In this document: one piece after another, positions 3 through 44,845 of the stretch
Layout of the letters: each line of letters opens with the position of its first letter
Position numbering within the stretch: the stretch's first letter is position 1
Source of the DNA: Candidatus Babeliales bacterium
Lineage (GTDB): Bacteria; Babelota; Babeliae; Babelales; RVW-14
Assembly (NCBI GenBank): GCA_019749895.1
Contig: JAIEPG010000002.1
Location: 66,244-130,243 of the forward strand
Length of the DNA: 64,000 nucleotides
Direction of reading: 5' to 3'
Program-made: the position numbers and the translations under genes
Notes under the pieces: generated by a model
The model's input: only the letters and a program-made list of their open reading frames with translations
Told to the model about the DNA's origin: nothing
Database searches by the model: none

Positions 3-1133
3 TCTGGGGCAAACTGGGAACGCACACACCCCAACACGCTCGAAGAGATATTTACGTTTGTGCATCAAAGCTTACTTGCTGTGTTAAGCACACTTACACA
101 GCACGAAATTTCTTTACACAATTTTGGCGCAATCCAGCAAATGCACGACTTTTTACTCAACAAAACAAACCTCTCAACGCATTCAGCTAAAAAGATCAAC
201 GTTATTGGCGTTGATGTGCAAGGACCACTACTGCGGATTAACTACAGCTTCCCTCAGCGCTTGCACAGTGCACTTGCCACACTTACTTTTGATAAAACAA
301 CGCAAACGTGCTCACTACAATTTTCAATGATTGGATTTAACCACAACGGCCGCTGGGAACGCTGCCTGGATTTTTTAGAACTCAAGAGCATGGTTAAAGG
401 CATACCACTAGTCAAAGCCGAAGTTTTAGGCCAACGATTTAATAGTGCGTGGCAATGGCAGCTTGACGCCACAAAGCCAGAAAAGCACATCCTGTACCTT
501 TCCGATCTTTTTAAAATAGCGACCATTATTGCTTATCAATTTAACACGTTGCTGGGAAGCAATGAAGATAAGCTTTTTGATCCAACTATATCAGGTTCCA
601 TTGCCAAGATTTATGAGAACACAGACCGATCAGAATCGTATCTCATTTCTCACAAAAACGCACTACCAACACCTGCAGCAAAAAAAGCATTTTTTGATAA
701 AGCGGCACCTGTAGTTATACACCTCTCACGCCACAAGCATCGCGCGCACTGGCTGCTACCACAAGCACTTGCGTACATTCGCACAAACCCAACCCTAATC
801 ACCAACGAGTTGTTCAGCGAGGTTGTTGACATTGCCAACAAGCTTGCCACACCCGACAGTGACTATGCATTGGAAACAGAAATTTTTTTATACCGCAAAC
901 AAACCAATGCAGACAATGGGCCAAATCTTAGCGAAGCAAAAAAACGGTTTTATCAAACAACGGTAGAAAATTACTATCAGATTATGCCTCCAGAACGCAT
1001 TCAAGAAGTACGCGGTAACGCAAACAAAAATAAAACAACCAAGGGCATGCTTGCTTTGTGTCTTGAGCTGCTCAACACTGCCACCACAACCTCACGAGCA
1101 CAGAATAACAACGGTACTGATAAAAAAAATTAA
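3..1133 (+). CDS. hypothetical protein, probably 5'-partial
   Basis: The frame of the listed ORF 60..1133 (GTG at 60) stays open back to the window edge (..SGANWERTHPNTLEEIFTFVHQ..). No signal peptide and no motif I recognise. A hairpin terminator follows directly. Confidence 0.5.
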   Translation, partial: SGANWERTHPNTLEEIFTFVHQSLLAVLSTLTQHEISLHNFGAIQQMHDFLLNKTNLSTHSAKKINVIGVDVQGPLLRINYSFPQRLHSALATLTFDKTTQTCSLQFSMIGFNHNGRWERCLDFLELKSMVKGIPLVKAEVLGQRFNSAWQWQLDATKPEKHILYLSDLFKIATIIAYQFNTLLGSNEDKLFDPTISGSIAKIYENTDRSESYLISHKNALPTPAAKKAFFDKAAPVVIHLSRHKHRAHWLLPQALAYIRTNPTLITNELFSEVVDIANKLATPDSDYALETEIFLYRKQTNADNGPNLSEAKKRFYQTTVENYYQIMPPERIQEVRGNANKNKTTKGMLALCLELLNTATTTSRAQNNNGTDKKN

Positions 1134-1182: not shown

Positions 1183-3555
1183 TTAAGATGAAGATGATGC
1201 ACCCGAGTCAGTGAAATATTTAGCCATAACAGTAGCCAAAGATGTTTTCTTTTTTGGACTTAAATAGCCTGCTTGAATGTACAAATGCAACAGGTTTGCA
1301 CAATCTCTAGCTAATTCCTGGTTATTTGGACCAGCTCCGGGTTTATTAAGAAAGGCTATAACCATTGCCAAAAATGCTTTACTCTTGAGCCCTGCTCGTA
1401 AACCAGTAAAGATCATAAGGCCCATTGCTTCTTGCTTGTTATAATGTTGTATCAAGTCCAAAATATTAACCCCTGCAACGGCTGCATCGCCAAGTAATAA
1501 TTCTGGTGAAAGAGCTTTCATAAATTGTGAATACTTGTGTTCTCTTGTGGAGTCATTCTTCCAGCCTAGAATTGCAACAGCTTGACTTGCCATAGCACCA
1601 AAAGCCAAATGCAAAGAACTTTCAATCATGTCACGTCTCAAGTTTTCAGCTTCTACCTCAGACAACTCCTTGGTAGACAAGTTACCGGATGCATCTTTAT
1701 ACGTGATCTTGGCACCCGTAATCAAAATACCTTTATAAAAATCATAAATATAATTTTGCGAGCCTTTTTTCAATGAACCCAATTCACACACCCACCCAAT
1801 TGGATCGTAGCCAAGAGCACCTGTTGCTAAAGCAAAATCTGTATCGATAACTTTTTTTGCCGCATAAACTTTACCCTGGCCAGGCACAAGCCTTGTTCTT
1901 ATATAACCATCCAAAGCACTTGCATTATTTTTTGTTGGAACGGTAGGTATCTTAGCAACACTTTGGTTTATGCCCGACTTCTTATCAAAACGCTTAACCA
2001 CTTTTTGACTTGGAGTTTCTACGGGTAGCACAGGAGGAGTTGGCTGAGGCGTTGAAGAGGATGGCGGCGTTGGAACAGTTGGCAAGGACTTCGTTAATTG
2101 CTCTTCCAATTCTTTTACTTTGTCATCTGCATCGTCAATATCTTGCTCTTCTTTGGCTATTTTTGCCCCATCACGTTCGTTAATCGCGGTAAGCAACATG
2201 CGCGTTGTAATCATAATAAACATATGGCGTTGCACTTGAACACCAGGAGCATTATAAATGGCATCCAAAAATTTCCCATCTTTAGCCTGTCCCTTCTTTG
2301 CAAGAACACCTGCTGGCGAATATTCACAACAAGCATCAAGAAGATCTGAAAGCGCCGAACCGTTACCCTTTACATATTCTAAAATTTTATAAGAAAGGTA
2401 CTTTGATGGAGCTACATAATTAGCGTTCTGCCCAATGTAATACAATATTGCATTAAGCGCCCACACAAGCAGAACAGGCTCATTGCCGCCAGCATTAAGC
2501 AAAGAATAAGCTGAAATTAAACTTGGACGCCTGTATTGTAACTTTTTAATAATCTCATCATACGCCTCTTGCGTATTCAAAATATTTTTCTCAATAAGAT
2601 ATCGAAAAAGATCGACCGCTTGTCTTAGCTTGTTAACATTCGGCTCCATCGGATCCATGTAATTAAAGGTAACTTTGCCGTCACTTGATAAGAAATCTAT
2701 CAACTTATCTTTGGCAAAAGCCAAAACAGCTTGATTGTCTTTAAGATTGTCCTGAGTGCGCACAATCGTAAACCAATCGGTATAGTCTGGAAGACCGCTT
2801 CCTCCTGGAGGAAAAGCCTTCAACCCTGCCTCAACTTGAGGTACCGTCATCGAAGCCCCCTTTGGCCCAGACTCTACTCCCATTTGGGCAAAAGCATGAT
2901 ATTCATGCAACATTACTGCAAAAGTATCTTTGCAAAATTGGCGAATAGCTGCGGATTCACTATCAAATGCACCACTTTTAACCTGAGCAAGAATTGCAAA
3001 AAATTCCTGACGCTTTTGTTCAATAGTTGTAACATTTTGTGCATCAGCAACAAGTGCCGCATCGAGCGGCAAGGTATTGTACGGGTCAACCCACGCACGA
3101 TACACGGCATTCAACGAATTAACATCAGTGGCAGAGCTTGCAAGATCTTCAAATTGGGCTTCTTGGGCATTTTTTAGGGCATCAAGTTGCTGTTGAAGAT
3201 TTTCGATCTGACTCTTTACTACATCAACATCAGATTGGGAAATGCTTGCACTGGCCTGCAAAGTAGCAATTTGCCCTTTCAAGGCAGACAAAGCCCCTTC
3301 AAAAACGGCTTTGTCTGGTACGGCAACCGGCCCAGAAGTTCCAGTTATTGGTGGGGTTGGTTTTGGTAGCGGTACTGGTGGCGTTGGTTTTGGCGAAGTT
3401 GCATGCACCAACATATGCAACTGGTGGGCTAACTCAACCTGCTTTGCTTTTAAAATCTCAAGCGTTTGCCGTAAATCATTAAGAGGCCCGGCGGCGCCAT
3501 GCAAACTGGAACAAACAAGAAAAAAAATGGGCACAAAAAAATACTGCTTCTTCAT
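1183..3555 (-). CDS. large exported hypothetical protein (790 aa) with conserved post-signal-peptide helix and Pro-rich linkers
   Basis: Signal-like N-terminus MKKQYFFVPIFFLVCSSLHG. It is followed by AAGPLNDLRQTLEILKAKQVELAHQL, a motif shared with the 4569..11036 and 14758..16155 proteins. Pro-rich segments are PKPTPPVPLPKPTPP and PTVPTPPSSSTPQPTPPVLP. No catalytic motif recognised. Confidence 0.75.
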   Translation of the reverse strand: MKKQYFFVPIFFLVCSSLHGAAGPLNDLRQTLEILKAKQVELAHQLHMLVHATSPKPTPPVPLPKPTPPITGTSGPVAVPDKAVFEGALSALKGQIATLQASASISQSDVDVVKSQIENLQQQLDALKNAQEAQFEDLASSATDVNSLNAVYRAWVDPYNTLPLDAALVADAQNVTTIEQKRQEFFAILAQVKSGAFDSESAAIRQFCKDTFAVMLHEYHAFAQMGVESGPKGASMTVPQVEAGLKAFPPGGSGLPDYTDWFTIVRTQDNLKDNQAVLAFAKDKLIDFLSSDGKVTFNYMDPMEPNVNKLRQAVDLFRYLIEKNILNTQEAYDEIIKKLQYRRPSLISAYSLLNAGGNEPVLLVWALNAILYYIGQNANYVAPSKYLSYKILEYVKGNGSALSDLLDACCEYSPAGVLAKKGQAKDGKFLDAIYNAPGVQVQRHMFIMITTRMLLTAINERDGAKIAKEEQDIDDADDKVKELEEQLTKSLPTVPTPPSSSTPQPTPPVLPVETPSQKVVKRFDKKSGINQSVAKIPTVPTKNNASALDGYIRTRLVPGQGKVYAAKKVIDTDFALATGALGYDPIGWVCELGSLKKGSQNYIYDFYKGILITGAKITYKDASGNLSTKELSEVEAENLRRDMIESSLHLAFGAMASQAVAILGWKNDSTREHKYSQFMKALSPELLLGDAAVAGVNILDLIQHYNKQEAMGLMIFTGLRAGLKSKAFLAMVIAFLNKPGAGPNNQELARDCANLLHLYIQAGYLSPKKKTSLATVMAKYFTDSGASSSS

Positions 3556-3667
3556 ACAAACTCCTTCTGCTTATCCAAAAAATTGAAAAAAGACTATTGT
3601 TAGTAAAGCAAAAAGATAATTCTTCGAGCAAGATTTTTTAAAATCAACACAAAAAGAAAGGCTCAAT

Positions 3668-3698
3668 AAAAAAAGGACCTCTCAACAATGAGAGGCCC
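3668..3698 (-). terminator. rho-independent terminator of the 3725..4447 phosphatase gene
   Basis: GGACCTCTCA-ACAA-TGAGAGGCCC pairs at 9 of 10 positions. On the minus strand a T7 run (A-run 3668-3674 on the + strand) follows it. Confidence 0.6.
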
Positions 3699-3724
3699 TT
3701 TGCGTGACTAACTAAAACTAAAAA

Positions 3725-4447
3725 TTATTCAGCTACTACTTCTTCCCGAGAATCACTGTCATCACTCACGCTTTCTTGAGTAACAGGAACCTCTGGCTGT
3801 TCTACCACAGATCGAAACGGCACCGCCGCTGGCACAAAACCAGCTGGGCGTTCTTGTGGAACAATCATTTGTTGGGGCTCAACTGTTGGCACAAGATTTG
3901 TTTGCTCTTCCTGTGGTGCAAATTTTTCAGCATAATAACGCTCAATAAATTGTTCTTGAGCTTTTGTTTCAATTGAATGAGGTCTCAGTCTGCGAACCAA
4001 TGCAATAGCATCTTGCGGTTTCATTGCTTTTTTTGCAACAAACCAACAGGCCAAAACGGTGCCCGTTCTGCCCTGGCCAGCAGTACAATGAACCACAGCT
4101 CCCTTATTTTTTGCTTGAACTTCATCTACTTTAGTAACGAAAGTTTCTATTTGTTCAACTGTTGGAGTATGAAAATCTTTAATTGGCAGATGCAAAACTT
4201 CAATAGCAACATCGTCTGGCACAGTAAGACCTGCAAGCATACTTTCGGTTAATGAAACAATAAGTCCAATACCCTGATCTTGCAAAGCATAAAAATTACC
4301 AACATTGGTTGGACGAGCCATGCCAGCAAGACGCGCATTTTCCTCGGTATTTACAAACGAAAAATTGCGCGGCAAAGAATTGGCAGCACTGTGCAACGCA
4401 CCGGTTAAGCCAAAAATAGCGAACAAAGAGAAAAACTGCTTTTTCAT
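3725..4447 (-). CDS. exported dual-specificity (DUSP23/VHZ-like) Cys-based protein phosphatase
   Basis: CX5R P-loop VVHCTAGQGRTGTVLACWFV, followed by RRLRPHSIETKAQEQF as in DUSP23-type enzymes. I prefer the internal ATG at 4447 (MKKQFFSLFAIFGLTGALHSAANS, signal-like) over the ORF-track start at 4543. Confidence 0.8.
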   Translation of the reverse strand: MKKQFFSLFAIFGLTGALHSAANSLPRNFSFVNTEENARLAGMARPTNVGNFYALQDQGIGLIVSLTESMLAGLTVPDDVAIEVLHLPIKDFHTPTVEQIETFVTKVDEVQAKNKGAVVHCTAGQGRTGTVLACWFVAKKAMKPQDAIALVRRLRPHSIETKAQEQFIERYYAEKFAPQEEQTNLVPTVEPQQMIVPQERPAGFVPAAVPFRSVVEQPEVPVTQESVSDDSDSREEVVAE

Positions 4448-4520
4448 AGTAAAATTCCCACACATAACAACAGACCAAATCAACCTCACTACTAAGTTTA
4501 ACATACTTTTGATTTTTAAG

Positions 4521-4557
4521 AAAAAGGGGCTTTTTTTAAACAAAAAGCCCCTTTTTC
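4521..4557 (-). terminator. rho-independent terminator of the 4569..11036 gene
   Basis: AAAAAGGGGCTTTTT / AAAAAGCCCCTTTTT inverted repeat with flanking T-runs on the minus strand, 12 nt after the stop. Confidence 0.65.
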
Positions 4558-4568
4558 TTGAGATATTA

Positions 4569-7500
4569 CTAAATTAAGCCATGATAAGAACTATCTAACA
4601 CATTCTTCAGCTGCCCGCCTTTTAAAGTTTGATTTATAAATGGCTTTCTTGCATTTTCAAGCAACTGGGCCTGTGCCTGAGTATAAATCTTGTTTTGTAT
4701 ATTTTTAACTAAAAGATCATAGTTCTTTTGAGCAAGATAAGAATAATTATCCCCATTGTTTGCACTAGAAACCGATGTGTACTGAACAGCATAATTTTGT
4801 AAAAAAACATCATTTTTATAGCCAGCTTGCAACAAAATATGTACCAAGATAAGACTTAAACGGCGCAAACTACCACTAGTTTGTAGTCGAGCAAAAACTT
4901 CGTCCGGACTATCAAGTAAAACCGGCACCGAATCAAAAACCCTTTGAAGATTTTGCCGCTGTTCTGGCGTTGCTCCAGGAGCATTGTTGTCGGCAAAATG
5001 GCTAGAAAGGTCAGCCAATAAAGCTGGTTTCGTGGGATATAAATCACCAGGTGCAGACGCACCAGAATTATAATACGTCCATGGGCTTGGTGGTGGCGGC
5101 GTATCAAGATCTACTTTGTATGCTTTGATACTATTTTCTTGCTCTTCCGTTTCTATTGAGTGTGGACGCTTGAGCCTCACTTCATCAATCGCTTCTTGGG
5201 CCGTTATATTTTTTGATTTAACAAGCCAACAAGCAAGCATAGTCCCCGTCCGTCCATAGCCACCAGCACAATGAACAACAAGCGGCTGATTGGCTTCAAC
5301 ACTTGCCAGAGTTATAAATTGTTTAATTTGTGCAAGCGTTGGCGGCGCAAAGTCTTGAATTGGGATTCTTACGTTGCGCAGCGTACTCCAGCCTGGCACA
5401 CCCAAAGCACTGGTAAACCATTCCTGTGGCAATTGCGTCTCATTTGTCAACGAAACCAGATTCTTAACACCTTCAAATTGTAATGCTTTAATGTACGCAA
5501 AAGAATAAGGTAAAGCCATGCCACCTACCCGGTGAGGACTATCGTCAATCCAAGAAAAATTATTCCCTTCAAGAAGCTCTTTTAATCGCGCTTGCAAGTT
5601 CACTGCATCACAAAACTCTAATAGTTCAATCACATTTTTTAAAACAAGCTGATTGCCATAAATTTGTGCATTAAATTCGTCCCAAAGCTTATCTTTTGTT
5701 ACTTCATTAACACTTGTTGCCAAAGGGTAAAAAGCCTTGAAAACTTGTACCCCATTTTGACCAGACAAAACAAGCTCCATGTTTTCATCAAAGAACTTTT
5801 TCTTAGAGTTTTGAATCTCGGTATCAGTCCCGGCCAATTTCGCACCCGCAGGCCCAACAAATGAGGCTACTGATGAACCCGCAGCGTTAAGATTCATGAG
5901 CTGATCATAGACCACAACTGCTTGCGCTGCTTCTTTAACTTGTGCTGCTCCTGCTCGCCCCGGCTGCTGCGCTTGTTGCAGAAATGTTTGCAGATTAGTA
6001 TTTGCAACTGTGGAATAGGGAGAACCTCCCAAGCCACCAGAACTATTCACCGACTTAAGGCTCGCAAAGAAATCAGGACGCTTCTTAATTAAGTTAACAA
6101 AGTCTGTCCAAATATCTGCAGAAAATTTAGAATAATAAGTTTTTGTAACAATCGTATTAAATATCTGCTGTGCTATTGCATGTTTAAATGATCCAATACC
6201 TCGAAGATTATCCATTTGTCTGGCATGATGATCATTTTCACGCCGCGCTAACGTTTGATAAATATTTTCTTCAGATATTCCATAATATTCATCAGCTGGA
6301 ACGTCATGAGGATAGGCAGGACTTCTATTGCCTCTAAAGAAAAAGATATCGGCATTAGCAGCATAAGACGTCTTACTCAGCAATTTATCCATAATCGCTA
6401 GAGTACCCTTCCAATATTTATCGCCAGCGGTTCCTGCTGGAATATACTCAAGTACACGGTCAAGGTACATATGCGGGTAGCTTTTTTCAGATAATGATTT
6501 TTCAATTATTTTCTTTGCAAAGCTCTCTTTTAAAGCAAGTGTTTTTAACAAATTATCAACAATAAAAGTATACGTTGTGTTTTCTTTTGTTATCATGGAG
6601 TCACTGCCATCAGTAGCATATGAAAGTCCGTTGTGGCCAGTTGGACCATCATTGGCTTGACGCATAGCCTTTGCCAAAATATTTATTGTAGGGAGATATG
6701 GAGCAAGCTTGAATCGCGCAATATCTTCTTTGGTCACCGTCCACCAAAAAGTAACCGCCTTCTTTTCTGGCGTAACTTCAACTTGTTTAAGATCTAATGC
6801 CCATGCAACCGCTTGAGCATAGTCACCAATTTTATAGAAACGACCCCACTCGTTTTCGCCACTCGTTCTGCAACCAAAGCGAGCCGTGTCAGTTTTTTTG
6901 TTGTATTCAAGAAACAGAGTTGCGCTATGAGACCTCAACGGATAATTATACTTATAACCAAGAGTACCTTTACTAAACGAAAGCCCCATCAACGTTGCAT
7001 GATTACCATGCGTACCAAAACCTACTTTCTTAATGCTATCAATTTCTGCAAGCAAGTCTTTGAGCAACTGCGGCAACGCTGGAGCATCTTTACTTGCCAG
7101 CGCCACAACAGAAGTCTTACCCAAAAAGAAACTTGTTACATTAATCAAACTTTGATGAATAAAGGTAAAAATATCTTCAAACGTGTTGACAGCTTGAAGA
7201 GAACCTCCTGCTTTATTACCAATCACAACAAGCGCTACGTTAAAATTGTTAGAGTTATCAAGTTGAGCAGCATCGTAAAGCTTGGCTGCTCCAGATAAGC
7301 TTGTTGTTGCGGCTGCTAACTTAACAGTCACGCCAGTATCAAAAGCGGTACCGTAATGCCCACCAAGTTCTTGATACGGACTAATGCCGGTAAGCAGGCG
7401 TAAATATTCATCTAGCATTGTTTTAAAGGTGAAAAGTTTGTTGTCGCGCGTGTTAAGTTTAGGATTTGCAGCACTAGTAACCACTTCATACTCACTACTT

Positions 7501-10500
7501 GCTTTAACTGCCTTTATTGACTGATCGAACGTATCAATAAATAAATCTAACAGTGACAACACCGCCACTTTACCTATATCGCCAGCATTTTTGTATGATT
7601 GTACAAACGCAGGGTCAATAAGCTCAGTAACAATACCAGTAAGCAGCAACCATTGCTTATCAAACTTTTTACGCTGAGCAAATATTTCAGGCTTTAAAAA
7701 TTTAACACGCGCAATTTTCTCATTTACCGTATTCAACAGAGCTTTATCGTTATTGAATGCCGTTACAAGAGAGATCAGAACTTGCTGAACTGGTAGGGCT
7801 TGTGTTAAATCTTTTTCCTTTGCCGGTTCAAAAAAATCAGTGTGCAGCCAAACGGTAAGCAACCCAAGCTTACCCAAGGTTGCTACCGCTTCACCAAAAT
7901 CTTTTTTGTGCTGCTTGCCACCAACATCACCCACCTTGGCAACAAACTGAATCCACTTGTCACTCACTACTTGATTAAGTGCTTCGTCTGCTATTTTTGC
8001 ATACTGAATAACTTTACCTTCTTGTTTGATTTCAGGCTCAACAAGCCCTTTCTCTTTGAGTCTTTGAATAGCAATCGCTTCAGGTTTTAAAGTACGCAAA
8101 ACAAAATTGGCAAGTGAGAATGCATTAAGTACCTGATCCGCCTCTGGCTGCTGAAACAATAATGCTTCTAAGAAACGTACCGCAAATAATCGTTTAATAT
8201 AATCGTCTGTCCCTTTTACAAAATTACGTGTTTGCAAAATATGATGTCCAACCTTAGCCAAGGTATATTTAAACAAAGCTATTTTGTTAGTTAAATCTTG
8301 ATCTAGCGTTATTGATTTTACATAAAATTCCATACGCTGTTTAATAACCATCAAAAGAACCAAAAAGCTTATCCGTAGATTCTTTTCATCGGCACCTTGT
8401 GCCACAGTGTCAAGCATAGTCATAATTTGCGGAGCCAATGCTGCTTGGTTTTTAGTCGATTTAAATGGGGCAAGGAAAGCTTGAAGTTCCGCTGCGCTCA
8501 CTCCTTCTTTAAGTTCTAACTCTAATTCTTTAAGTAAATCATCAACCTTTGTAGCATCAAAATCTGCCGGTGCAATGCTAGAAAGCAACGGCGATATTGG
8601 ATAATTTTTCCAACCTTCAAGAATATCATTGGTATTTTTTAAATCTTGCAACGTTTGCTTTGAATCCCACTGAACCACCAGCCCCTGTTGTGGGTCGACT
8701 AAAAACTTTGCACCAGGCTCACTGATCGCATCGATAAGTTTATTAATACCGGTCATAAAAATAACCGGCTTTACTGCTGTACGAAATTGTGTTCCCTCAT
8801 GCGATGTTGGTGGCGCATGCTGCCCCACCACAACGCAAGCTACACGTTCTTTTGTCTTGCTATGCATGTACGTATCAAAAGCCTCACCCATAGTACTTTT
8901 AACAATTATTTGGTTGCCATCAATCAGTCGAACAGCACCATCGGCTGGAATAATTGTTTCTCCCTTAAAAACTTCTCCCGTTAACGCTGCAGGGTTGGCA
9001 ATGTATGACGGCTCTCCCTGATTTGGATTATGCGTAATTGGACGAGCTTGCACCAAGTACAATGTTGAATCATTTCTATCAATAACAAATTCAACGTCCA
9101 TTGGCTTGAGGTAATATTCTTCAAGAACATTTGCCAACAGCTTGAGCATAAGTCCTTCGTACGATGTCAGTACTGGGCTCATGGCAAGATCTGGCGGATT
9201 ATCGCGATCTTCAAGTTTAGAATCTTGGTTAAGAGAAGGAAATTTCCTAAATGGCTTTGGTCGCACAATTGCATACATTTTGTCAAAATCGCTCAGATAG
9301 TAGGTATCAACACCAACAAGACTGTTGACCACCCCTTCATTGTGCCCATACGCGGCATCAATAGCCACAATGCCAGTTGAACGAGCCTTGACAGAATAAT
9401 CCCAATGCTCATTCAAGAGATCTTTTTTTGCAATCCCCCCGCCCGGCTCTTCGGTAAACATAACACCACATGCTGGTAATCTTCTTTCTATCATTTTGTT
9501 GTCAGGCAAAACTGGCTCTATTTGCACAGCAACATAATTGTTTGGGTTTGCAACAGATGCAGCTGTTAGAACACGCACGGCGAGGACTATAGCTTCTGGT
9601 GTAGGCGCAACATTTTGAAAGTTTGTACCATTAGTAAGCGATACCTTAACCTGCCATCCTCCTTTTTGAGCTGCTTTTAACATACCATCAAGATCAGACT
9701 CTTGTGTGTTAAAAAATGCATCCAATGAATTTTTGCTTGTAGTTTTAAAGGTATCCCATTTTTCAAACAAGTTAGGACCAGGTTTATTGAACGCTGAACG
9801 CACATTTTTTGAACGAATACCACGAATACGCTCTCCCACCATTCTTTGAATAAGCACTGGCGTAAATGGCTCATCAAATAACTCAGGATCACCACCAATC
9901 AAACGTTGCATAAAGGATTTTTCACTAAAATATGAACCAACTACCACACCCATTGCCAGCAAAATTTCTGACAGCTGCGGCGCAACGTTTGCAACACTTT
10001 CATTACCCCCGGCGTTTGCAAGCTTGTCGGTATCTTCTTTCCCGGTACTACGAACCATTAATGAACTTTTGAAACGTTTTATTTTTTCAAGTGTTTCATT
10101 AATGCCAACTTCAAATTGAGCATCAAAATCAAAGATACCAGAAACAACGTCAGGCTCTGTTGCAGCTGTATTAAAAATGGCCATAACATCATTTTCTAAG
10201 ACCTTTAAATTATCCAAAAACGTTTTTGAAAAATTTTGATCGCGCTTAAATTGATCTTGCGCAGCCTTGTCAAAACGCGCTATAAAATCCGCCCAACGAG
10301 TTTTTATATCAAATCCATTTTTTAGCAAAAATGCTTTTATAGAATCTGACGAAATACCCTTAAACTCTGGCACACGTATTTTTAACTCATAAGAACCTGT
10401 TTTGTCGGCAATCAAGTTAGTCAAAATGCTTAATGCTCGAGATATCTTTTCAAGCTCTTGCAGATTTCCTGTTTTGTAACCATAGCCCTGAACTTCAGCA

Positions 10501-11036
10501 AAAACTCGCAATGCTTCTTTGTCGTGAGGGGCAATAGCAGCAATCAAGCTGGCAATCAATTGCGAAAGTTCTTTGTCGATATCTCTAAACGGTGCTGTAT
10601 CATACGCAATAAAAGCAGCAGCGTCTGGGTTCTTTTCTTCTTCTTCATCTGATTCCCAAAACATGCCCTTGAAAGCACCCCAGATCTTCCCTGTTAAAGA
10701 TTCTTCTTGCTGCTCTTGCGCTTTTAAATCCTTTACATATTGTCTCAGCGGCTTTTTGCTTTTAACAAATTCTTGGGCCTTGGTAAAACCGGTATTGTAC
10801 TGACCCCACAACGCCTGCTCTTTGGCTTTTCTTGCTGCTTCTTTTAAATTTTTCTCCAATTCCTGCTTTTCTCTCAAATCAGTTAACGCTTGTCCCAACT
10901 GACCAAGTTTTGCTTTTAAGGCGGTAAGTCCACCCTTCAAGTTGTCTAGTGGGTTTGTGGCAGCTGTAAATGCATGATTATTAATAAAAAATAGCAAGAG
11001 AAAACACAGCACGTACTGTCTCTGTTTTTTATTCAT
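4569..11036 (-). CDS. giant exported multidomain protein (2,155 aa): PPDK_N-like ATP-grasp, phospho-His swivel domain, about 1,050 aa unknown, DUSP23-like phosphatase
   Basis: Signal-like MNKKQRQYVLCFLLLFFINNHAFTA, then the shared helix NPLDNLKGGLTALKAKLGQLGQAL. ATP-grasp motifs (about 9033-10064): LMVRSTGKED, GVMFTEEP, AAYGHNEGVVNSLVGVDTYYL, PMDVEFVIDRNDSTLYLVQARPIT. Swivel domain (about 8742-8984): VACVVVGQHAPPTSHEGTQFRTAVKPVIF, with the T-S-H His codon at 8799-8801. Phosphatase domain (about 5112-5549): LVVHCAGGYGRTGTMLACWLV and LKRPHSIETEEQE, with the Cys codon at 5268-5270. Confidence 0.8.
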   Translation of the reverse strand: MNKKQRQYVLCFLLLFFINNHAFTAATNPLDNLKGGLTALKAKLGQLGQALTDLREKQELEKNLKEAARKAKEQALWGQYNTGFTKAQEFVKSKKPLRQYVKDLKAQEQQEESLTGKIWGAFKGMFWESDEEEEKNPDAAAFIAYDTAPFRDIDKELSQLIASLIAAIAPHDKEALRVFAEVQGYGYKTGNLQELEKISRALSILTNLIADKTGSYELKIRVPEFKGISSDSIKAFLLKNGFDIKTRWADFIARFDKAAQDQFKRDQNFSKTFLDNLKVLENDVMAIFNTAATEPDVVSGIFDFDAQFEVGINETLEKIKRFKSSLMVRSTGKEDTDKLANAGGNESVANVAPQLSEILLAMGVVVGSYFSEKSFMQRLIGGDPELFDEPFTPVLIQRMVGERIRGIRSKNVRSAFNKPGPNLFEKWDTFKTTSKNSLDAFFNTQESDLDGMLKAAQKGGWQVKVSLTNGTNFQNVAPTPEAIVLAVRVLTAASVANPNNYVAVQIEPVLPDNKMIERRLPACGVMFTEEPGGGIAKKDLLNEHWDYSVKARSTGIVAIDAAYGHNEGVVNSLVGVDTYYLSDFDKMYAIVRPKPFRKFPSLNQDSKLEDRDNPPDLAMSPVLTSYEGLMLKLLANVLEEYYLKPMDVEFVIDRNDSTLYLVQARPITHNPNQGEPSYIANPAALTGEVFKGETIIPADGAVRLIDGNQIIVKSTMGEAFDTYMHSKTKERVACVVVGQHAPPTSHEGTQFRTAVKPVIFMTGINKLIDAISEPGAKFLVDPQQGLVVQWDSKQTLQDLKNTNDILEGWKNYPISPLLSSIAPADFDATKVDDLLKELELELKEGVSAAELQAFLAPFKSTKNQAALAPQIMTMLDTVAQGADEKNLRISFLVLLMVIKQRMEFYVKSITLDQDLTNKIALFKYTLAKVGHHILQTRNFVKGTDDYIKRLFAVRFLEALLFQQPEADQVLNAFSLANFVLRTLKPEAIAIQRLKEKGLVEPEIKQEGKVIQYAKIADEALNQVVSDKWIQFVAKVGDVGGKQHKKDFGEAVATLGKLGLLTVWLHTDFFEPAKEKDLTQALPVQQVLISLVTAFNNDKALLNTVNEKIARVKFLKPEIFAQRKKFDKQWLLLTGIVTELIDPAFVQSYKNAGDIGKVAVLSLLDLFIDTFDQSIKAVKASSEYEVVTSAANPKLNTRDNKLFTFKTMLDEYLRLLTGISPYQELGGHYGTAFDTGVTVKLAAATTSLSGAAKLYDAAQLDNSNNFNVALVVIGNKAGGSLQAVNTFEDIFTFIHQSLINVTSFFLGKTSVVALASKDAPALPQLLKDLLAEIDSIKKVGFGTHGNHATLMGLSFSKGTLGYKYNYPLRSHSATLFLEYNKKTDTARFGCRTSGENEWGRFYKIGDYAQAVAWALDLKQVEVTPEKKAVTFWWTVTKEDIARFKLAPYLPTINILAKAMRQANDGPTGHNGLSYATDGSDSMITKENTTYTFIVDNLLKTLALKESFAKKIIEKSLSEKSYPHMYLDRVLEYIPAGTAGDKYWKGTLAIMDKLLSKTSYAANADIFFFRGNRSPAYPHDVPADEYYGISEENIYQTLARRENDHHARQMDNLRGIGSFKHAIAQQIFNTIVTKTYYSKFSADIWTDFVNLIKKRPDFFASLKSVNSSGGLGGSPYSTVANTNLQTFLQQAQQPGRAGAAQVKEAAQAVVVYDQLMNLNAAGSSVASFVGPAGAKLAGTDTEIQNSKKKFFDENMELVLSGQNGVQVFKAFYPLATSVNEVTKDKLWDEFNAQIYGNQLVLKNVIELLEFCDAVNLQARLKELLEGNNFSWIDDSPHRVGGMALPYSFAYIKALQFEGVKNLVSLTNETQLPQEWFTSALGVPGWSTLRNVRIPIQDFAPPTLAQIKQFITLASVEANQPLVVHCAGGYGRTGTMLACWLVKSKNITAQEAIDEVRLKRPHSIETEEQENSIKAYKVDLDTPPPPSPWTYYNSGASAPGDLYPTKPALLADLSSHFADNNAPGATPEQRQNLQRVFDSVPVLLDSPDEVFARLQTSGSLRRLSLILVHILLQAGYKNDVFLQNYAVQYTSVSSANNGDNYSYLAQKNYDLLVKNIQNKIYTQAQAQLLENARKPFINQTLKGGQLKNVLDSSYHGLI

Positions 11037-11171
11037 TTCTTATCCTCAGCTTAGATTTAATTTTTTGGATTATGCGATTTACCAAAACTAAGAGTAAGTA
11101 ATTAAAAAAATGAATATCAATAATTGAGAAAGATAAGCTCAATTATTCAGCAAAAAGAAGAAAATTCTCAC

Positions 11172-11199
11172 AAAAAAAAGACCCCCAATTTCTTGGGGA
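11172..11199 (-). terminator. orphaned rho-independent terminator next to the phosphatase-tail remnant
   Basis: CCCCAA-TTTC-TTGGGG hairpin. On the minus strand a T8 run (A8 at 11172-11179) follows it. It lies 22 nt downstream of the remnant stop codon at 11221-11223. Confidence 0.55.
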
Positions 11200-11220
11200 T
11201 CTCTAAAAAATCAAAGTAAA

Positions 11221-11275
11221 TTATTTGGCTAGGCGCGATTGGTAGAACGTGCGTACAAATTGCTCTTGTTCAAAA
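11221..11275 (-). pseudogene. 3'-terminal remnant of a DUSP23-like phosphatase gene (duplicate of 11981..12035)
   Basis: About 47 of 54 nt are identical by eye to the 3' end of the intact gene at 11981. The remnant translates FEQEQFVRTFYQSRLAK* against FEQEQFVRTFYKSRLAK* in the intact gene. No upstream coding continuation exists. Confidence 0.7.
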
Positions 11276-11337
11276 GGGCTATTTTATTAAAAAAAGGCTA
11301 TTTTCAAGACTATTTTTAACAAAAAATAACTTTAAAA

Positions 11338-11364
11338 TTGACCTGGGTACCAAATTGTGGTACC
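11338..11364 (+). promoter_or_regulatory. candidate hicAB promoter with operator palindrome
   Basis: TTGACC at 11338-11343. A perfect inverted repeat GGTACCA-aattg-TGGTACC at 11346-11364 overlaps the spacer and the -10 region (TACCAT/TAAAAT). It lies about 40 nt upstream of the hicA start. Confidence 0.4.
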
Positions 11365-11404
11365 ATAAAATTAGTAAAAAAGAATAGATAGCCAAGGACT
11401 GTGA

Positions 11405-11659
11405 GTGAATAAAAAGCATAAAAAAACTTTAGAGCTCATTTTTAAGTCGCCACCGCAGCCTAACGTGCGATGGAGCGATATTGAATCTCTCCTCAGAAAT
11501 TTAGGAGCTGAAATAAGTGAGGGCAATGGGTCACGGGTGCGTATCATACTCAATGATGTTAAAGCAGTATTTCACCGACCACATCCAAAGCCCGAAACAG
11601 ACAGAGGCGCCTTGGTATCAATGAAAAGGTTCTTACAAAACGCGGGGATTAGTTTATGA
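11405..11659 (+). CDS. hicA: HicA-family mRNA interferase toxin
   Basis: 84 aa with a GTG start. Family-typical KTLELIF..VRWSDIESLLRNLGAEISEGNGSRVRIILN..AVFHRPHP. A 4-nt ATGA overlap joins it to the downstream antitoxin gene. Confidence 0.85.
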   Translation: MNKKHKKTLELIFKSPPQPNVRWSDIESLLRNLGAEISEGNGSRVRIILNDVKAVFHRPHPKPETDRGALVSMKRFLQNAGISL

Positions 11660-11979
11660 ATAATTTAATGCACTATAAAGGCTATTATGGCCACGTTACC
11701 TTTGATAATGAAGCAGAAATCTTTCATGGCGAAGTTATTGGACTGAAAGACGTTATCACCTTTCAAGGCAAAAGCGTTCAAGAGCTCAATAAAGCTTTTA
11801 AAGACTCTGTTAATGATTATCTTGCGTGGTGCCAAGAACGCAACGAAAAACCTGAGAAAACTTTTTCAGGCAATCTACGTATTCGCATTCCAGCAGAGCT
11901 TCATGCCATTCTAACCAATGAGGCTGCGTCTCACGGCCTCAGCCTCAATTCATACATTATCGAAAAGTTACAAAAATAA
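11656..11979 (+). CDS. hicB: HicB-family antitoxin with C-terminal RHH-like DNA-binding tail
   Basis: 107 aa. YKGYYGHVTFDNEAEIFHGEVIGLKDVITFQGKSVQELNKAFKDSVNDYLAWC, then FSGNLRIRIPAELHAILTNEAASHGLSLNSYI. Translationally coupled to hicA. Confidence 0.85.
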   Translation: MNNLMHYKGYYGHVTFDNEAEIFHGEVIGLKDVITFQGKSVQELNKAFKDSVNDYLAWCQERNEKPEKTFSGNLRIRIPAELHAILTNEAASHGLSLNSYIIEKLQK

Positions 11980-11980
11980 A

Positions 11981-12520
11981 CTATTTAGCCAGGCGCGACT
12001 TGTAAAACGTGCGCACAAATTGCTCTTGTTCAAACGTACTAATCGACGGATTGCGCAGCTCACGAACTTTACGGATTGCCGAGTCGGCATCAATGCCTTC
12101 GTTGGCAATTAACCAACAGGCAAGCAACGTGCCCGTGCGGCCCATGCCGTGTTTGCAATGCACAACAACGCCTTTGTCTTGCTGTTGAACCGCTTTAGCT
12201 TCACGCAAAAACTCTTCAGCTTGTGCAATAGTTGGCACGTGCAGATTGTAAATGGGCAGATGCAGGGTTTTGATACCAGGATGCTCAATAAAATATTGTG
12301 GTGGCAAGGGGTTTTTGGTCAGCGTAACAATCAACCCAACATTGTGCTCGTGCAGGTAGGCAATGTGCTCTTTGCACGCGGGTTGTGCCATACCGGCCAT
12401 TTTATTGTTGGTTTTTTCACAGATCCAAGAAAAATACTGTGGGCTAATTGAAGATGACAAATTATGGGCAATGTTCATAACAGCAACGCTCAGCATTAAT
12501 AAAAACAGTGTTCTTTTCAT
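11981..12520 (-). CDS. exported DUSP23-like Cys-based protein phosphatase
   Basis: P-loop VVVHCKHGMGRTGTLLACWLI, then LRNPSISTFEQEQF. I prefer the ATG at 12520 (MKRTLFLLMLSVAVMNIAHN), which has GGAG upstream, over the ORF-track start at 12592. Its stop is 1 nt from the convergent hicB stop. Confidence 0.8.
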   Translation of the reverse strand: MKRTLFLLMLSVAVMNIAHNLSSSISPQYFSWICEKTNNKMAGMAQPACKEHIAYLHEHNVGLIVTLTKNPLPPQYFIEHPGIKTLHLPIYNLHVPTIAQAEEFLREAKAVQQQDKGVVVHCKHGMGRTGTLLACWLIANEGIDADSAIRKVRELRNPSISTFEQEQFVRTFYKSRLAK

Positions 12521-12711
12521 AAAGGGCTCCTTGCAAAGCCCTATCTTAACAAAAAGGTGGTGGGTGTGCAAAAGCCCCCTCCCTCGATACATTTTTTCGC
12601 TTCTTCCTACGCCCTATCCTTCGACAAGCTTACACCTTCGCTCTTCATAGCTTCGGTGCACAGGCAGGACGAACGGGCTTCGGAGGACGGGTCGCTCAAA
12701 AACACTCGGGA

Positions 12712-12958
12712 TGAGCACCCTTCGAGACGCTCTACGAGCTCCTCAGGGAAAACGGATGGAAGTAAGCCTCGGCCATCCCTAAGCCTATTGAAAAACGTGG
12801 GAAAACGGATGGAAGTAAGACCCAATCATTCTGAGTCTGTTAAAAAACGTGGAAAAACGGGGAATATAGAATGTCTTCTGGTTTTAACTTTTTTTACTTC
12901 AATAGTTTTTAGTTCCCGTTCGGCCTGAGGAGCAACTCGGAGAGTTGCGTCTCGAAGG
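12712..12958. repeat. GC-rich intergenic repeat locus 1: two inverted repeat units of about 45 nt flanking short tandem repeats
   Basis: The unit CACCCTTCGAGACG..CTCCTCAGGGAAAACGG sits at 12715-12757. Its reverse complement CCGTTCGGCCTGAGGAGC..GCGTCTCGAAGG sits at 12915-12958. Between them GGGAAAACGGATGGAAGTAAG occurs twice (12746 and 12799), with a degenerate third copy. The same unit recurs at 34013-34128. Confidence 0.8.
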
Positions 12959-14665
12959 CTACAGTCCAGGCTCGTCGGATTCTTGCACGTAGGCAACTGC
13001 AAGCACTTCATCGATGGTAGTTATGCCTTCTTGAATTAACCGTACGCCATCCAGACCCAACAGCGTCATGCCGGCTTTAAGCGCCTGGTCACGCACCACA
13101 TTTGCATCGGCTCGTTGAATAATCAGGCGGGCAATGGCATCGTCAACCTCCATAACTTCAAACACCGCACAACGGCCACGGTAGCCCGTTTGTAGGCACT
13201 CGTCACAACCAACAGGCTTATAAAAAGTTATGCTGGCAGCTTGGGCAGCCGTTATGCCAAGACGGCGAATAGCTTCAGCATCGGGCTGGTAAACTTGGCG
13301 ACACTCAAGACACAAGGTACGTACCAAGCGTTGTGAGATAACCATAATTAATGAAGAAGCAATAAGAAACGGCTCAACGCCCATGTCGATCAACCGCGTA
13401 ATGGTTGCCGGTGCGCTGTTGGTGTGAATGGTGCTTAACACCAAATGACCGGTCAAGGCAGCTTGTGTTGCAATTTCTGCCGTTTCACGGTCGCGAATTT
13501 CACCAATCAGCACCACATCGGGGTCTTGTCGCAAAATAGATCGTAAAGAAACGGCAAACGTTAGCCCTGTTTTTTCATTAACCGGAACTTGATTCACACC
13601 ATGCACGGTATATTCCACCGGATCTTCAACGGTAATAATGTTAACGTCGGGCTGGTTTAAGCGATTTAAAATGGCATAGAGCGTAGACGTTTTACCAGAA
13701 CCGGTTGGACCGCTCACCAAAATAATGCCGTTAGGGCGTTCAATGGTACGCAGCATCAACTTTAAATCTCGCTCTGCCATACCAATTTTTTCTAAATCTT
13801 TAGTGCCCTTACCTTTGTCGAGCAAACGCATAACCACACGCTCACCAAAATTGCAAGGCAAAATGGACACACGAATATCAAATGCACGGTCGCCCACTTT
13901 AATTTGAATACGCCCATCTTGCGGTATCCGCTTTTCGGCAATGTTGAGATGCGCCATAATTTTTATACGCGAAACAATAGCGCCCTGGTAGCGCTTGGGC
14001 GGAATAACGCGGGAATATAAATTACCATCAATGCGGTAACGCACACGCAACTCTTTTTCATACGGTTCAATGTGAATATCTGACGCACCTTCTTTTACCG
14101 CCTGAAACATAACGTGGTTGACCAGTTTTACAATGGGCGCTTCGTTGGCCATTTCCATAATATCTTTGTCTTCAATGGAACTAAAACCGAACTCATCTTC
14201 GCCTTCGGTAAGCTCTTCCATCATTTCTTTACTACTTTCTAGCGGGTAGTATTTGTTGATGGCGTCCATAATAACTAAATCGGTAGAAACGGCATAACGC
14301 ACATCACCGGCCATGAGTAGTGAAAGATCGTCCAACGGCTGCAAGTCGTGCGGGTTGGCGGTTACCAACGTTTTTTGGCCTTCAAACATGATAGGAATTA
14401 CCATGTGCTGACGCAAAAATTTGAGTGGCACTTTGCGCAACAGCTCAAGGTCGGCCATTTGTTCGGTAATCAGCTGGATGAAGGGAAGCTGCATCTGCTC
14501 GCCCAGCGCACGAGCAACGTCATGCTTTGAAGCAAAGCCACGCTCAATAAGAATAGTACCCAGCAATTTGCCGGTCGATTTTTGTTCTTTTAAACAATCA
14601 TCAAGCTGCTCTTTGGTAACAATTCCAAGATCGATAAGAATATCACCAATTTTTTTTCTCAGCAT
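12959..14665 (-). CDS. GspE/PilB-family type II secretion / type IV pilus assembly ATPase
   Basis: N-terminal T2SSE_N-like domain (GDILIDLGIVTKEQLDDCL..LGEQMQLPFIQL). Walker A GPTGSGKTST. Asp/His boxes. Tetracysteine CLECR..CDEC. I prefer the start at 14665 (MLRKKIGD), with AAGGAG 9 nt upstream, over 14683. Confidence 0.9.
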   Translation of the reverse strand: MLRKKIGDILIDLGIVTKEQLDDCLKEQKSTGKLLGTILIERGFASKHDVARALGEQMQLPFIQLITEQMADLELLRKVPLKFLRQHMVIPIMFEGQKTLVTANPHDLQPLDDLSLLMAGDVRYAVSTDLVIMDAINKYYPLESSKEMMEELTEGEDEFGFSSIEDKDIMEMANEAPIVKLVNHVMFQAVKEGASDIHIEPYEKELRVRYRIDGNLYSRVIPPKRYQGAIVSRIKIMAHLNIAEKRIPQDGRIQIKVGDRAFDIRVSILPCNFGERVVMRLLDKGKGTKDLEKIGMAERDLKLMLRTIERPNGIILVSGPTGSGKTSTLYAILNRLNQPDVNIITVEDPVEYTVHGVNQVPVNEKTGLTFAVSLRSILRQDPDVVLIGEIRDRETAEIATQAALTGHLVLSTIHTNSAPATITRLIDMGVEPFLIASSLIMVISQRLVRTLCLECRQVYQPDAEAIRRLGITAAQAASITFYKPVGCDECLQTGYRGRCAVFEVMEVDDAIARLIIQRADANVVRDQALKAGMTLLGLDGVRLIQEGITTIDEVLAVAYVQESDEPGL

Positions 14666-14733
14666 ACTGCCCAGCTCCTTCATTTAGCATCAGATTTTTA
14701 TACGTGGTCCAGAGTGTATCAGATGGGTGGTAG

Positions 14734-14756
14734 GCGGGCAACAATTTAGCAAAATG
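14734..14756 (-). promoter_or_regulatory. 23-nt upstream motif, copy 1 (candidate -35/regulator site for the GspE-family gene)
   Basis: GCGGGCAACAATTTAGCAAAATG on the + strand. This is 21 of 23 identical to 16219-16241. On the minus strand it reads ..CTAAATTGTTGCCCGC, giving TTGCCC-N17-TACACT. Confidence 0.4.
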
Positions 14757-14757
14757 A

Positions 14758-16155
14758 CTAAAGCAAGGCATATGAATCAAAATTTCCTTGCTTCGTGAAG
14801 TACCTCGTCAGCAAAGAATCAATTTTAGCCTGTCTCTCCGCAAGAGGAATTTCTTTACTTACACCTGTGCCATGATTGTAGTACTTCTTATAAAAGCCTT
14901 CTAGCCCGGAGTGCGCAGAAAAAAAAGCTTCATTTCTACTAAGATCACTAGCAGGGTTATCATGATTAAAGTGTGAAATACTACCTTGCGGGGCAAATAA
15001 CTTATAATTAAATTCTCCACTCTTGGTACCAAATGCAATTGCACTGGTTCTATAGTGCGGTACAAGATCACCTGCTTTCAAAGATTTGTTGCTATCAAGT
15101 TGCTCCTGTGTTGCAGGAGCTCGATACGTTGAACCATTGTTCAAGGGGATCATGGTACCATCACCCTGAGCTTGCACAACAGCAACGGCCAACGAAACAA
15201 ACCAACCGGTATCGGTTAATGTTTTGGTAACTAGATTTTTAAGAACAGAAAATTGAGGCTTATGCGCATCTGTCAAATCTGCTTGCATTTTAGGCTGCGG
15301 CAAATGAACATCAATTGACGTCAAAATGTCACATTTCATAGAAGGGTCTACAGTACAATCGCGGCAATAATCTTCAGAATTACTGTAAGCGTAAATTTCA
15401 GTATCTTTAAAAGATTCAGAATGTGCCGATTTAAACCAATTAGCAAACTCTTGAAATCTTTGCTTATAGTTCACATTATTAAAAACGTCACCAGCATAAT
15501 TGGTATCGATAAAAATGAGCTTTTTAAAGGTAAAGCCAAAGCGAGCTAGCAAATCAATTAATTTAAAATCTTGACCGAGACACCCTGACCCAAGCGAAGC
15601 ATAGGTTAACTCTTTTTCTTTGCCATTAAACTTGGACAAACAAAATTCCAAGAAAAATAAATCAAAAATGCCTCTTCGCCATGAATCTATCGACAACTCA
15701 TAGCAAGCCTCAAAATGCCTAAATAAATCATGCAATTTATCAGTAGGAGTTAAACCTCTAAAACAATTATATGAACCAGGTTGAAACAGACCAGTCCCTT
15801 TTACGTGGTACTCGAGATACTTCACAAAAAACTCAGCATTTGGTTTCTCTAAAACCTTACCAGCCTCATCAACACCAAAAACATAATTGGTAAGTTCTTC
15901 TATCGCTGCTTTTTCGAGCAACGTAACGGGGTTAGTAAATTTTTTTCTCTTAAGTACTGCTGGCACACCTGGTCCCGCCGGTGCTGCTGGTCCTGCTGGT
16001 GCTGGTACAAGCGCAGACAATGCCTGCGCCAACGTTGCCAATTTTGTCTTAAGTGCCTGCAAACCAACTTGCAAACCAACCAACGGACCGGCTGCGGGCA
16101 TACATTGTGAAAAAGAGAAAAACAAAACAATAATTAATAATTTTTTAGACTTCAT
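14758..16155 (-). CDS. exported hypothetical protein (465 aa) with shared post-signal helix; possible Rossmann/methyltransferase-like core
   Basis: MKSKKLLIIVLFFSFSQCMP, then AAGPLVGLQVGLQALKTKLATLAQAL, then the Pro/Ala linker PAPAGPAAPAGPGVP. The segment YASLGSGCLGQD..KLIFIDTNY..CDILTSIDV weakly resembles SAM-MTase motifs I, II and IV. The fold call is low confidence. Confidence 0.7.
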   Translation of the reverse strand: MKSKKLLIIVLFFSFSQCMPAAGPLVGLQVGLQALKTKLATLAQALSALVPAPAGPAAPAGPGVPAVLKRKKFTNPVTLLEKAAIEELTNYVFGVDEAGKVLEKPNAEFFVKYLEYHVKGTGLFQPGSYNCFRGLTPTDKLHDLFRHFEACYELSIDSWRRGIFDLFFLEFCLSKFNGKEKELTYASLGSGCLGQDFKLIDLLARFGFTFKKLIFIDTNYAGDVFNNVNYKQRFQEFANWFKSAHSESFKDTEIYAYSNSEDYCRDCTVDPSMKCDILTSIDVHLPQPKMQADLTDAHKPQFSVLKNLVTKTLTDTGWFVSLAVAVVQAQGDGTMIPLNNGSTYRAPATQEQLDSNKSLKAGDLVPHYRTSAIAFGTKSGEFNYKLFAPQGSISHFNHDNPASDLSRNEAFFSAHSGLEGFYKKYYNHGTGVSKEIPLAERQAKIDSLLTRYFTKQGNFDSYALL

Positions 16156-25217: not shown

Positions 25218-25238
25218 CTTTCTCTCCTGCCCAAAATG

Positions 25239-26765: not shown

Positions 26766-26850
26766 GCACACCCTCTCTCGTTTTTTGAAAAATCGATGAC
26801 AGTGTTAGCAGAACATAAAGTGCCATTCAAATTCAACGCATAAATAAAAA

Positions 26851-26878
26851 AGGGCGACGCCTGTTGAGACATCGCCCT
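26851..26878 (-). terminator. terminator after 26955..28583
   Basis: AGGGCGA / TCGCCCT stem with a 14-nt loop. A- and T-runs flank it on both sides. Confidence 0.5.
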
Positions 26879-26954
26879 TTTTTTGAATACTTCTGGCCTT
26901 TTAGCCACCAATGGACTTCAAATTAACCTTGCCATCAGGAAAATATGATTTTTA

Positions 26955-28583: not shown

Positions 28584-28740
28584 AAAATCTCCCAAAATAG
28601 TAAAACGATAAAGCAACAGCCTAGCAATCTTTTGGCTTTTGTTAAATGACATGCACATACTCTCGACGTTTTAATAAAAAGATTGCTATAAGAAAAGATA
28701 GGTCGTATCTTTTTATCAGAGGCATGAATAACAGTATGAA

Positions 28741-35730: not shown

Positions 35731-35749
35731 ACACTATTTCCTTTCATTA

Positions 35750-36430: not shown

Positions 36431-36435
36431 AATTC

Positions 36436-36912: not shown

Positions 36913-36941
36913 GCTTTTACTCCGTTACCCTGTTAAAAATT

Positions 36942-37430: not shown

Positions 37431-37438
37431 TTTCTACG

Positions 37439-37942: not shown

Positions 37943-37986
37943 AAGAGCTCTCCTTGCAATTGTGCACGTACTAAGAAATTAATTAA

Positions 37987-38484: not shown

Positions 38485-38495
38485 AAAAGCCCCCC

Positions 38496-44837: not shown

Positions 44838-44845
44838 GAAACATT

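Follow-up and report, generated by a model that had tools for sequence, protein, structure and literature searches.

A leucine-heptad helix shared by otherwise unrelated leader-bearing proteins of a Babeliales clade

The DNA considered here is a stretch of 64,000 nucleotides from contig JAIEPG010000002.1 of a Candidatus Babeliales bacterium, analysed as a whole and referred to below as the window. Its G+C content is about 41%, and the presence of genes for TamB and an OmpA/Pal-like lipoprotein indicates that the source bacterium is diderm. Three large exported proteins of 790, 2155 and 465 amino acids (aa) encoded in the window carry the same helical module of about 27 residues, of which ATNPLDNLKGGLTALKAKLGQLGQALTDLR is an example. 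Their N-terminal layout is common to all three: a Sec-type leader with a Lys-rich start and a hydrophobic core is followed by the module, which in these copies follows the pattern A-A-(G/TN)-P-L-x2-L-x3-L-x2-L-K-x-K-x3-L-x3-L-x2-L. The first-pass annotation had described one helix behind the leader of each protein, and the open reading frames (ORFs), the translations and a regular-expression scan agree with that description. A Pro-rich linker, which it had placed in two of the three, is indeed seen in the 790-aa and 465-aa proteins. The copy in the 790-aa protein is the most divergent, with Gln at one a position. The features are listed in Table 1.

The motif occurs at only three places in a six-frame scan of the 64 kb, and a degenerate DNA pattern gives three matches in the window, compared with 0.00 expected from 100 shuffles. 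Eight consecutive hydrophobic a/d positions are found in the window only in the modules of the 2155-aa and 465-aa proteins. The likeness could have been no better than that of shuffled coiled-coil controls, but shuffles that preserve the heptads are beaten. With the eight a/d Leu residues held fixed, the three pairwise similarities exceed those of the shuffles at P = 0.005, 0.0001 and 0.0006, and the four invariant non-core columns are matched by 0 of 20,000 shuffles with the core Leu fixed. The three DNA copies differ in their synonymous codons, so it is the protein sequence that has been maintained, rather than a recent copy.

Beyond residue 56 the three carriers have no significant mutual similarity (best BLASTP E = 0.05), in keeping with their earlier description as otherwise unrelated. 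Other leader-bearing proteins of the window lack the module, as had been claimed and as both hidden Markov model (HMM) and heptad scans agree. These are the two DSP phosphatases, the four C11 peptidases, at least two of the three trypsin-PDZ proteases, a PLD-like protein and a family of small proteins with acidic tails. The 465-aa protein has no match in Pfam or NCBIfam, and a full-length search of 5.8 billion clusters returned only itself. Its single-sequence AlphaFold2 (AF2) model is unusable (mean predicted local distance difference test score, pLDDT, 38.5), although the module stretch (residues 23-48) is nonetheless helical. Separately, residues 182-277 of this protein show a beta-alpha-beta pattern with LGSGCLGQ...IFIDTNY, which recalls a Rossmann-fold methyltransferase; the pLDDT there is only 50-60.

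Table 1. Genes, leaders, module copies and linkers of the cluster, in window coordinates.
Feature	Position	Strand	Remarks
790-aa exported protein	1183..3555	-	No Pfam domain
Signal peptide of the 790-aa protein, Sec-type, residues 1-20	3496..3555	-
Module copy 1, residues 21-50 of the 790-aa protein, AAGPLNDLRQTLEILKAKQVELAHQLHMLV	3406..3495	-	Local HMM 50.6-56.3 bits
Pro-rich linker behind module copy 1, TSPKPTPPVPLPKPTPPITGTSGP	3328..3399	-
Exported DSP phosphatase without module	3725..4543	-	Negative example within the cluster
2155-aa exported protein	4569..11036	-	PPDK_N ATP-grasp-like region 514-673; DSP-PTPase domain 1825-1969
Signal peptide of the 2155-aa protein, residues 1-24	10965..11036	-
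Module copy 2, residues 25-55 of the 2155-aa protein, AATNPLDNLKGGLTALKAKLGQLGQALTDLR	10872..10964	-	HMM 48.3-52.4 bits
Exported DSP phosphatase without module	11981..12592	-	Negative example within the cluster
PilB/GspE-type ATPase, 574 aa, MshEN + T2SSE	12959..14683	-	Context; any functional link hypothetical
465-aa exported ORFan	14758..16155	-
Signal peptide of the 465-aa protein, residues 1-20	16096..16155	-
Module copy 3, residues 21-50 of the 465-aa protein, AAGPLVGLQVGLQALKTKLATLAQALSALV	16006..16095	-	HMM 44.1-46.0 bits
Pro-rich linker behind module copy 3, PAPAGPAAPAGPGVPA	15958..16005	-

The anatomy of the helix was derived from 15 copies of the module, numbered from the Pro (position 0). 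Leu is found at positions 1, 4, 8, 11, 15, 18, 22 and 25, each in 13-15 of the 15 copies, and the spacing of 3-4-3-4-3-4-3 forms a perfect a/d heptad stripe of eight positions. Lys is invariant at K12 (e) and K14 (g). Further conserved positions are g7 (Gly, Ser or Thr), c10 (Ala), f13 (Ala, Ser or Thr), b16 (Ala, Gly or Val), e19 (Gly or Ala) and g21 (Ala). Since conservation extends over several faces of the helix, a specific interface is to be expected rather than a generic zipper. For 10 of the 15 copies, the heptad angle (102.9°) gives a stronger hydrophobic moment than 100° does, and the best angle, 102.4-105.2°, is the period of a coiled coil rather than that of a straight helix. AF2 predicts the isolated module as one continuous helix over residues 3-31 of 32, with a mean pLDDT of 95. 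The module is thus helical and perfectly heptad; with hydrophobic a and d positions over at least three heptads of predicted helix, it shows the pattern of a coiled coil or leucine zipper.

The net charge of the module is only -1 to +3. K12 and K14 are interfacial, and the polar face consists of Gln, Thr and Ala rather than being acidic, as it is in a class A lipid-binding helix. The 15 copies contain no conserved aromatic residue. Inspection by eye spoke against a leucine-rich nuclear export signal or a calmodulin-binding helix, as the module lacks both a terminal Φ-x-Φ and aromatic anchors and its net charge is low.

Cleavage of the leaders was judged with the rule-based (-3,-1) check. In the 790-aa protein, allowed sites lie 1-8 residues upstream of the Pro that starts the helix. 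In all 10 N-terminal copies they lie 0-14 residues upstream of the helix start, with at least one within 5 residues, and the n- and h-regions of the leaders finish ahead of the conserved Ala-Ala. The module is therefore expected to survive cleavage and to stand more or less at the start of the mature protein. It had been conceivable that the motif was part of the cleaved signal peptide, but it lies downstream of every allowed site. The leader Cys residues of the 790-aa and 465-aa proteins stand in the contexts FLVC and FSQC and, by eye, do not match the lipobox ([LVI][ASTVI][GAS]C).

The distribution of the module outside the window was surveyed at both the protein and the DNA level. When a profile built from the three copies was compared with 1.84 billion representative proteins, just 10 matches emerged at E <= 1e-3, and the module is therefore not a generic coiled coil. 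The 10 matches comprise the three query proteins or their orthologs and seven other proteins. Every match with a named source comes from 'Candidatus Babeliales', an order of Babelota/Dependentiae, and from two metagenome-assembled genomes (MAGs) with the locus tags K2X40 (the genome JAIERW, GCA_019746485.1) and K2W90, of which K2W90 is the more distant from the window. At the DNA level, the degenerate pattern was scanned over 185,579 species, one genome each, and gave 41 loci, against roughly 35 that we estimate to be expected by chance. Only four of these, all from one MAG ('Candidatus Babeliales bacterium' JAIERW01), are in-frame copies confirmed by the HMM. A local HMM then recovered further copies in those loci and in related ones. 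One of the remaining pattern matches, from an 'uncultured Pseudomonadota' (L027 1402-1484, minus strand), carries a Leu-heptad helix, PLKKLQLNLNILKEKLTHLQDKL, behind a leader; it scores only 3.8 bits with the HMM and is probably an unrelated chance coiled coil.

Other searches returned no further family. The metagenome pattern scan held no copy confirmed by the HMM among the at least 120 loci listed, which does not prove absence, and a scan of viral contigs gave 9 pattern loci and no real copy. Word-indexed homolog searching of a database of 5.8 billion with the module alignments yielded nothing useful, the method being unsuited to a 30-residue motif. Among the curated families of Pfam-A, NCBIfam and PDB sequences there is no significant match, and Pfam has none even at E <= 10; the best PDB match is to 16 residues of Mediator Med9 (E = 0.26). 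Searches of the literature found no account of such a motif in Dependentiae. The module is thus restricted to a Babeliales clade. This clade is small, comprising three MAGs and a few metagenome contigs, and its organisms are uncultured.

Within this clade the module recurs in additional proteins of related genomes, as a scan proposed in the first-pass annotation had been meant to establish. The census comprises 13 ortholog groups from at least three MAGs. The module is N-terminal in 7-8 of them, internal in 2 and extreme C-terminal in 3. The uncertainty stems from the JAIERW variant of the 790-aa protein (798 aa), which has lost the Pro and makes an eighth N-terminal group if counted apart. 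The N-terminal groups, in which the module follows the leader, are the 790/798-aa, 2155/2154-aa and 465-aa proteins, P0012 (909 aa), P0006/L042a (1341/1237 aa), P0007 and the L165 protein (571/612 aa), and P0008 (368 aa). The module lies internally, between Pro-rich linkers, in P0005 (1176 aa) and in the protein encoded at L040 3-3494 (at least 1164 aa). It ends 0-2 residues from the stop codon in a 241-aa protein of L040, in P0009 (1195 aa) and in P0010 (445 aa).

All carriers, whatever the position of the module, have leader-like N-termini. The module is therefore found only on leader-bearing proteins, and the claim that it defines a class of exported proteins is borne out by its recurrence in the related genomes. 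Conversely, a position immediately behind the signal peptide does not hold as a rule, because the module is internal or extreme C-terminal in 5 of the 13 groups. These copies indicate that the module is a portable unit that is not tied to the signal peptide. In this respect it differs from the RxLR and PEXEL elements of oomycete and Plasmodium effectors. Those are likewise conserved elements just downstream of a signal peptide that mark a host-directed class, but they are linear motifs of 4-5 residues at a fixed distance from the leader, and PEXEL is a protease site. The Babeliales module is a structured, position-independent helix carried by about 10 proteins per genome.

The genome of the window is a very close relative of JAIERW, with a PilB that is 99% identical. 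The module proteins of the two are just 75-82% identical, which marks a fast-evolving island of exported proteins beside a conserved machine gene. The 798-aa ortholog of the 790-aa protein is 75% identical and retains the module. The ortholog of the 2155-aa protein (P0003) is 82% identical overall and 93% in the module. In two ortholog pairs between K2W90 and K2X40, the identity of the module compared with the protein mean is 0.70 vs 0.50 and 0.96 vs 0.54. Judged by these comparisons of sequence, the module is under purifying selection.

These data bear on the possibility that the copies have no common function, being a generic coiled coil spread by duplication of 5' gene ends and related by ancestry only. 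Tandem paralogs do have near-identical cassettes of leader and module and diverge directly afterwards. In K2W90, moreover, the leader and module of P0006 are closer to the neighbouring paralog than to the K2X40 ortholog, which suggests exchange of the 5' cassette. However, duplication of the 5' end cannot give rise to the internal and C-terminal copies. The module is kept where its flanks diverge to nothing, it is more identical than the average of the protein in each of the three ortholog pairs, and it surpasses the heptad-preserving shuffles described above. We regard this explanation as highly improbable, and it is already largely refuted. Tandem gene pairs in which both members carry the module were observed in two MAGs, at L165 1568-7463 and at L042 667-6124.

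The recognisable domains of the carriers are DSP-PTPase, PPDK_N, Metallophos/PPP phosphatase, ankyrin repeats and IQ calmodulin-binding motifs. As predicted domains, these are of a type used against eukaryotic hosts. About 44% of the proteins of Dependentiae, which are intracellular parasites, have leaders and are thought to include effectors (PMC6561590), and the eukaryote-type cargo of the module proteins fits this lifestyle. One example was noted at L040 3-3494 (minus strand), where an exported, coiled-coil-rich protein of at least 1164 aa combines an internal module with IQ motifs of the eukaryotic type; the neighbouring 241-aa protein has its module at the C-terminus.

After delivery, the helix might accordingly attach to a conserved protein or to a membrane of the host, which would bring the enzymes to one site. 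The kind of cargo agrees with such host-side targeting, as does the intracellular life of these bacteria, nearly half of whose proteins bear leaders and are regarded as effectors (PMC6561590). A localisation tag would also suit a position-independent module, and the invariant Lys beside the apolar face recalls interfacial helices. However, the strict period of 3.5 residues over 25 residues is better suited to a supercoiled bundle. Helices that lie flat on a membrane tend to a period of 3.6 or 11/3. The low net charge is a further point against this possibility, as is the lack of any eukaryotic protein among the profile matches from the 1.84 billion representatives and of any relative in the PDB. 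On balance, host-side targeting appears unlikely.

The neighbourhood of the PilB/GspE-type ATPase points in a different direction. This ATPase is the sole secretion ATPase among the window ORFs scanned, and in that sense it was correctly called lone; in the sister genome JAIERW, however, a secretin gene and two small genes lie just past the point that matches the left edge of the window. The order there (L180, JAIERW010000003.1, 173-19188) is PilB, a DSP phosphatase, the 2154-aa module protein, a DSP phosphatase, the 798-aa module protein and a 1343-aa PPDK_N protein, followed by a 187-aa protein, a 106-aa protein and the secretin. The 187-aa and 106-aa genes are possibly PilO/PilP-like. The 1343-aa protein has a leader and no module, and is a paralog of the N-terminal half of the 2155-aa protein. 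Window positions 3-1133 encode the C-terminal 357 residues of its ortholog, cut by the left edge, so a secretin gene should lie just to the left of the window. In the sister genome, three module genes thus lie between pilB and the secretin gene, in a 17-kb stretch whose gene order is common with the window.

This arrangement could mean that the module is an export or sorting tag, recognised in the periplasm by a type IV pilus or type II-like machine (PilB, PilO/P-like proteins, secretin) or riding on the pilus tip. The three module genes in the 17 kb between pilB and the 187-aa, 106-aa and secretin genes are consistent with this, as are the Sec leaders on all carriers. In 7-8 of the 13 groups the module also lies 1-8 residues from the mature N-terminus, which is the site of the TcpF signal (PMC9565799). 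However, only one of the eight module loci is near PilB. The other seven have no pilus or secretion genes in the flanking DNA examined, and the earlier claim that the carriers bracket the ATPase does not hold as a general rule. The shared synteny is of little independent weight, because the two genomes are near-identical in PilB. The exported phosphatases and the 1343-aa PPDK_N paralog of the same cluster lack the module, and in 5 of the 13 groups the module is internal or C-terminal.

The type IVb pilus signal of TcpF and CofJ (Vibrio cholerae toxin-coregulated pilus and enterotoxigenic Escherichia coli CFA/III) offers the nearest comparison for such a tag. Like the N-terminal copies of the module, it is at the extreme N-terminus of a mature Sec-exported protein. 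The gene of that protein stands beside pilus genes, and the protein has a trimer as its partner (PMC9565799). In TcpF the signal is not a helix but a flexible hook of 11 residues, which fastens to the trimer of minor pilins through the aromatic pair Phe1 and Tyr5 (PMC9565799). It is strictly N-terminal, with one substrate per system. The Babeliales module is a Leu helix of 27 residues that is also internal or C-terminal and mostly away from pilus genes; it is neither always N-terminal nor a flexible peptide with an aromatic pair. We consider an export tag clearly unlikely. That the helix is an address tag coupling a subset of Sec-exported effectors to a type IV pilus or type II-like apparatus, for example as a trimeric bundle on the pilus tip, must be called a long shot.

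We tentatively propose instead, at a little short of an even chance, that the module is an autonomous coiled-coil docking or oligomerisation unit for effector-like proteins. The first-pass annotation had suggested sorting, anchoring or oligomerisation. A shared and selectively maintained module stands, and its independence of position speaks for docking or oligomerisation rather than for a terminal sorting signal. Its occurrence at both termini as well as inside proteins, its isolation by linkers or chain ends, the all-Leu core and the conservation that wraps around the helix together point to an autonomous coiled-coil module. The helix would start at the helix-capping Pro and would usually be set off by a Pro-rich linker or the chain end. 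Sec export and cleavage of the leader would leave it accessible at the C-terminus, between linkers or at the new N-terminus, where it may associate with other helices, forming a bundle with like helices on other carriers or with one common partner. Such bundling could assemble or tether host-directed enzymes and repeat proteins, such as the phosphatases and the ankyrin and IQ-motif proteins.

Several points weigh against this proposal. The analysis identified no partner. With Lys beside its apolar face, a lone amphipathic helix could lie on a membrane instead, and the location of three module genes between pilB and the secretin gene would fit a role in export. There are, in addition, only about 10 module proteins per genome, from source organisms that are uncultured.

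Among known systems, the dockerins may provide the best analogy for how the module could work. Many unrelated secreted enzymes carry these small conserved modules, which are attached by Pro/Thr-rich linkers, stand at one of the termini or inside the chain, and define a set of proteins that assembles on a common partner. Unlike the single heptad helix, dockerins are duplicated Ca-binding loop-helix units of about 70 residues. No dockerin profile of Pfam matches the module at E <= 10, no cohesin-like scaffold was identified, and the Babeliales source is a diderm intracellular parasite. In structure, the module resembles the short parallel leucine zippers of the GCN4 type, as it has 3.5 heptads with Leu at every a and d and is predicted to be a single helix. 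In contrast to GCN4, it lies on exported proteins, has no polar core residue, and has invariant Lys at the central e and g positions with Gly or Ala at the other e/g positions. In the GCN4 core variants of Harbury et al. from 1993, Leu at both a and d is said to favour trimers or higher oligomers.

Some further features of the window were observed. A HicA (84 aa) and HicB (107 aa) toxin-antitoxin pair lies at 11405-11979 (plus strand), between a DSP phosphatase gene and the 2155-aa gene. The corresponding site in the sister genome is a bare spacer of 200 bp (L180 2523-2724), which indicates a recent insertion or loss. At 34842-40578 (minus strand), about 11 tandem genes encode small exported proteins of 144-262 aa, each consisting of a leader, a domain of about 100 residues and a strongly acidic C-terminal tail, with no Pfam match. 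This is an expanded, lineage-specific family. Four Peptidase_C11 (clostripain family) paralogs, all leader-like at the N-terminus, stand in tandem at 43401-48700 (plus strand), and three trypsin-PDZ (HtrA/DegP-like) protease genes do so at 23838-28658 (minus strand).

A small module common to secreted multi-domain proteins is a known kind of element; this particular helix, its restriction to one clade and its set of cargo are not known to have been described. We know of no report of type III or type IV secretion in Dependentiae (TM6), which are widespread obligate parasites of protists, and the module offers a handle on how their leader-bearing proteins are sorted, assembled and delivered. The tagged proteins can be listed with a simple profile, and the tag can be used in reporter fusions and as bait for partners. 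If the module serves as an export tag, the pilus/type II secretion class of machines would have in it a linear or helical signal of a rare kind, and as an address tag for the pilus the module would give this parasite phylum a recognisable and transplantable signal for export or delivery by such machines. If it is a docking unit, as we tentatively favour, it would represent a coiled-coil counterpart of dockerin-type assembly in a parasite.

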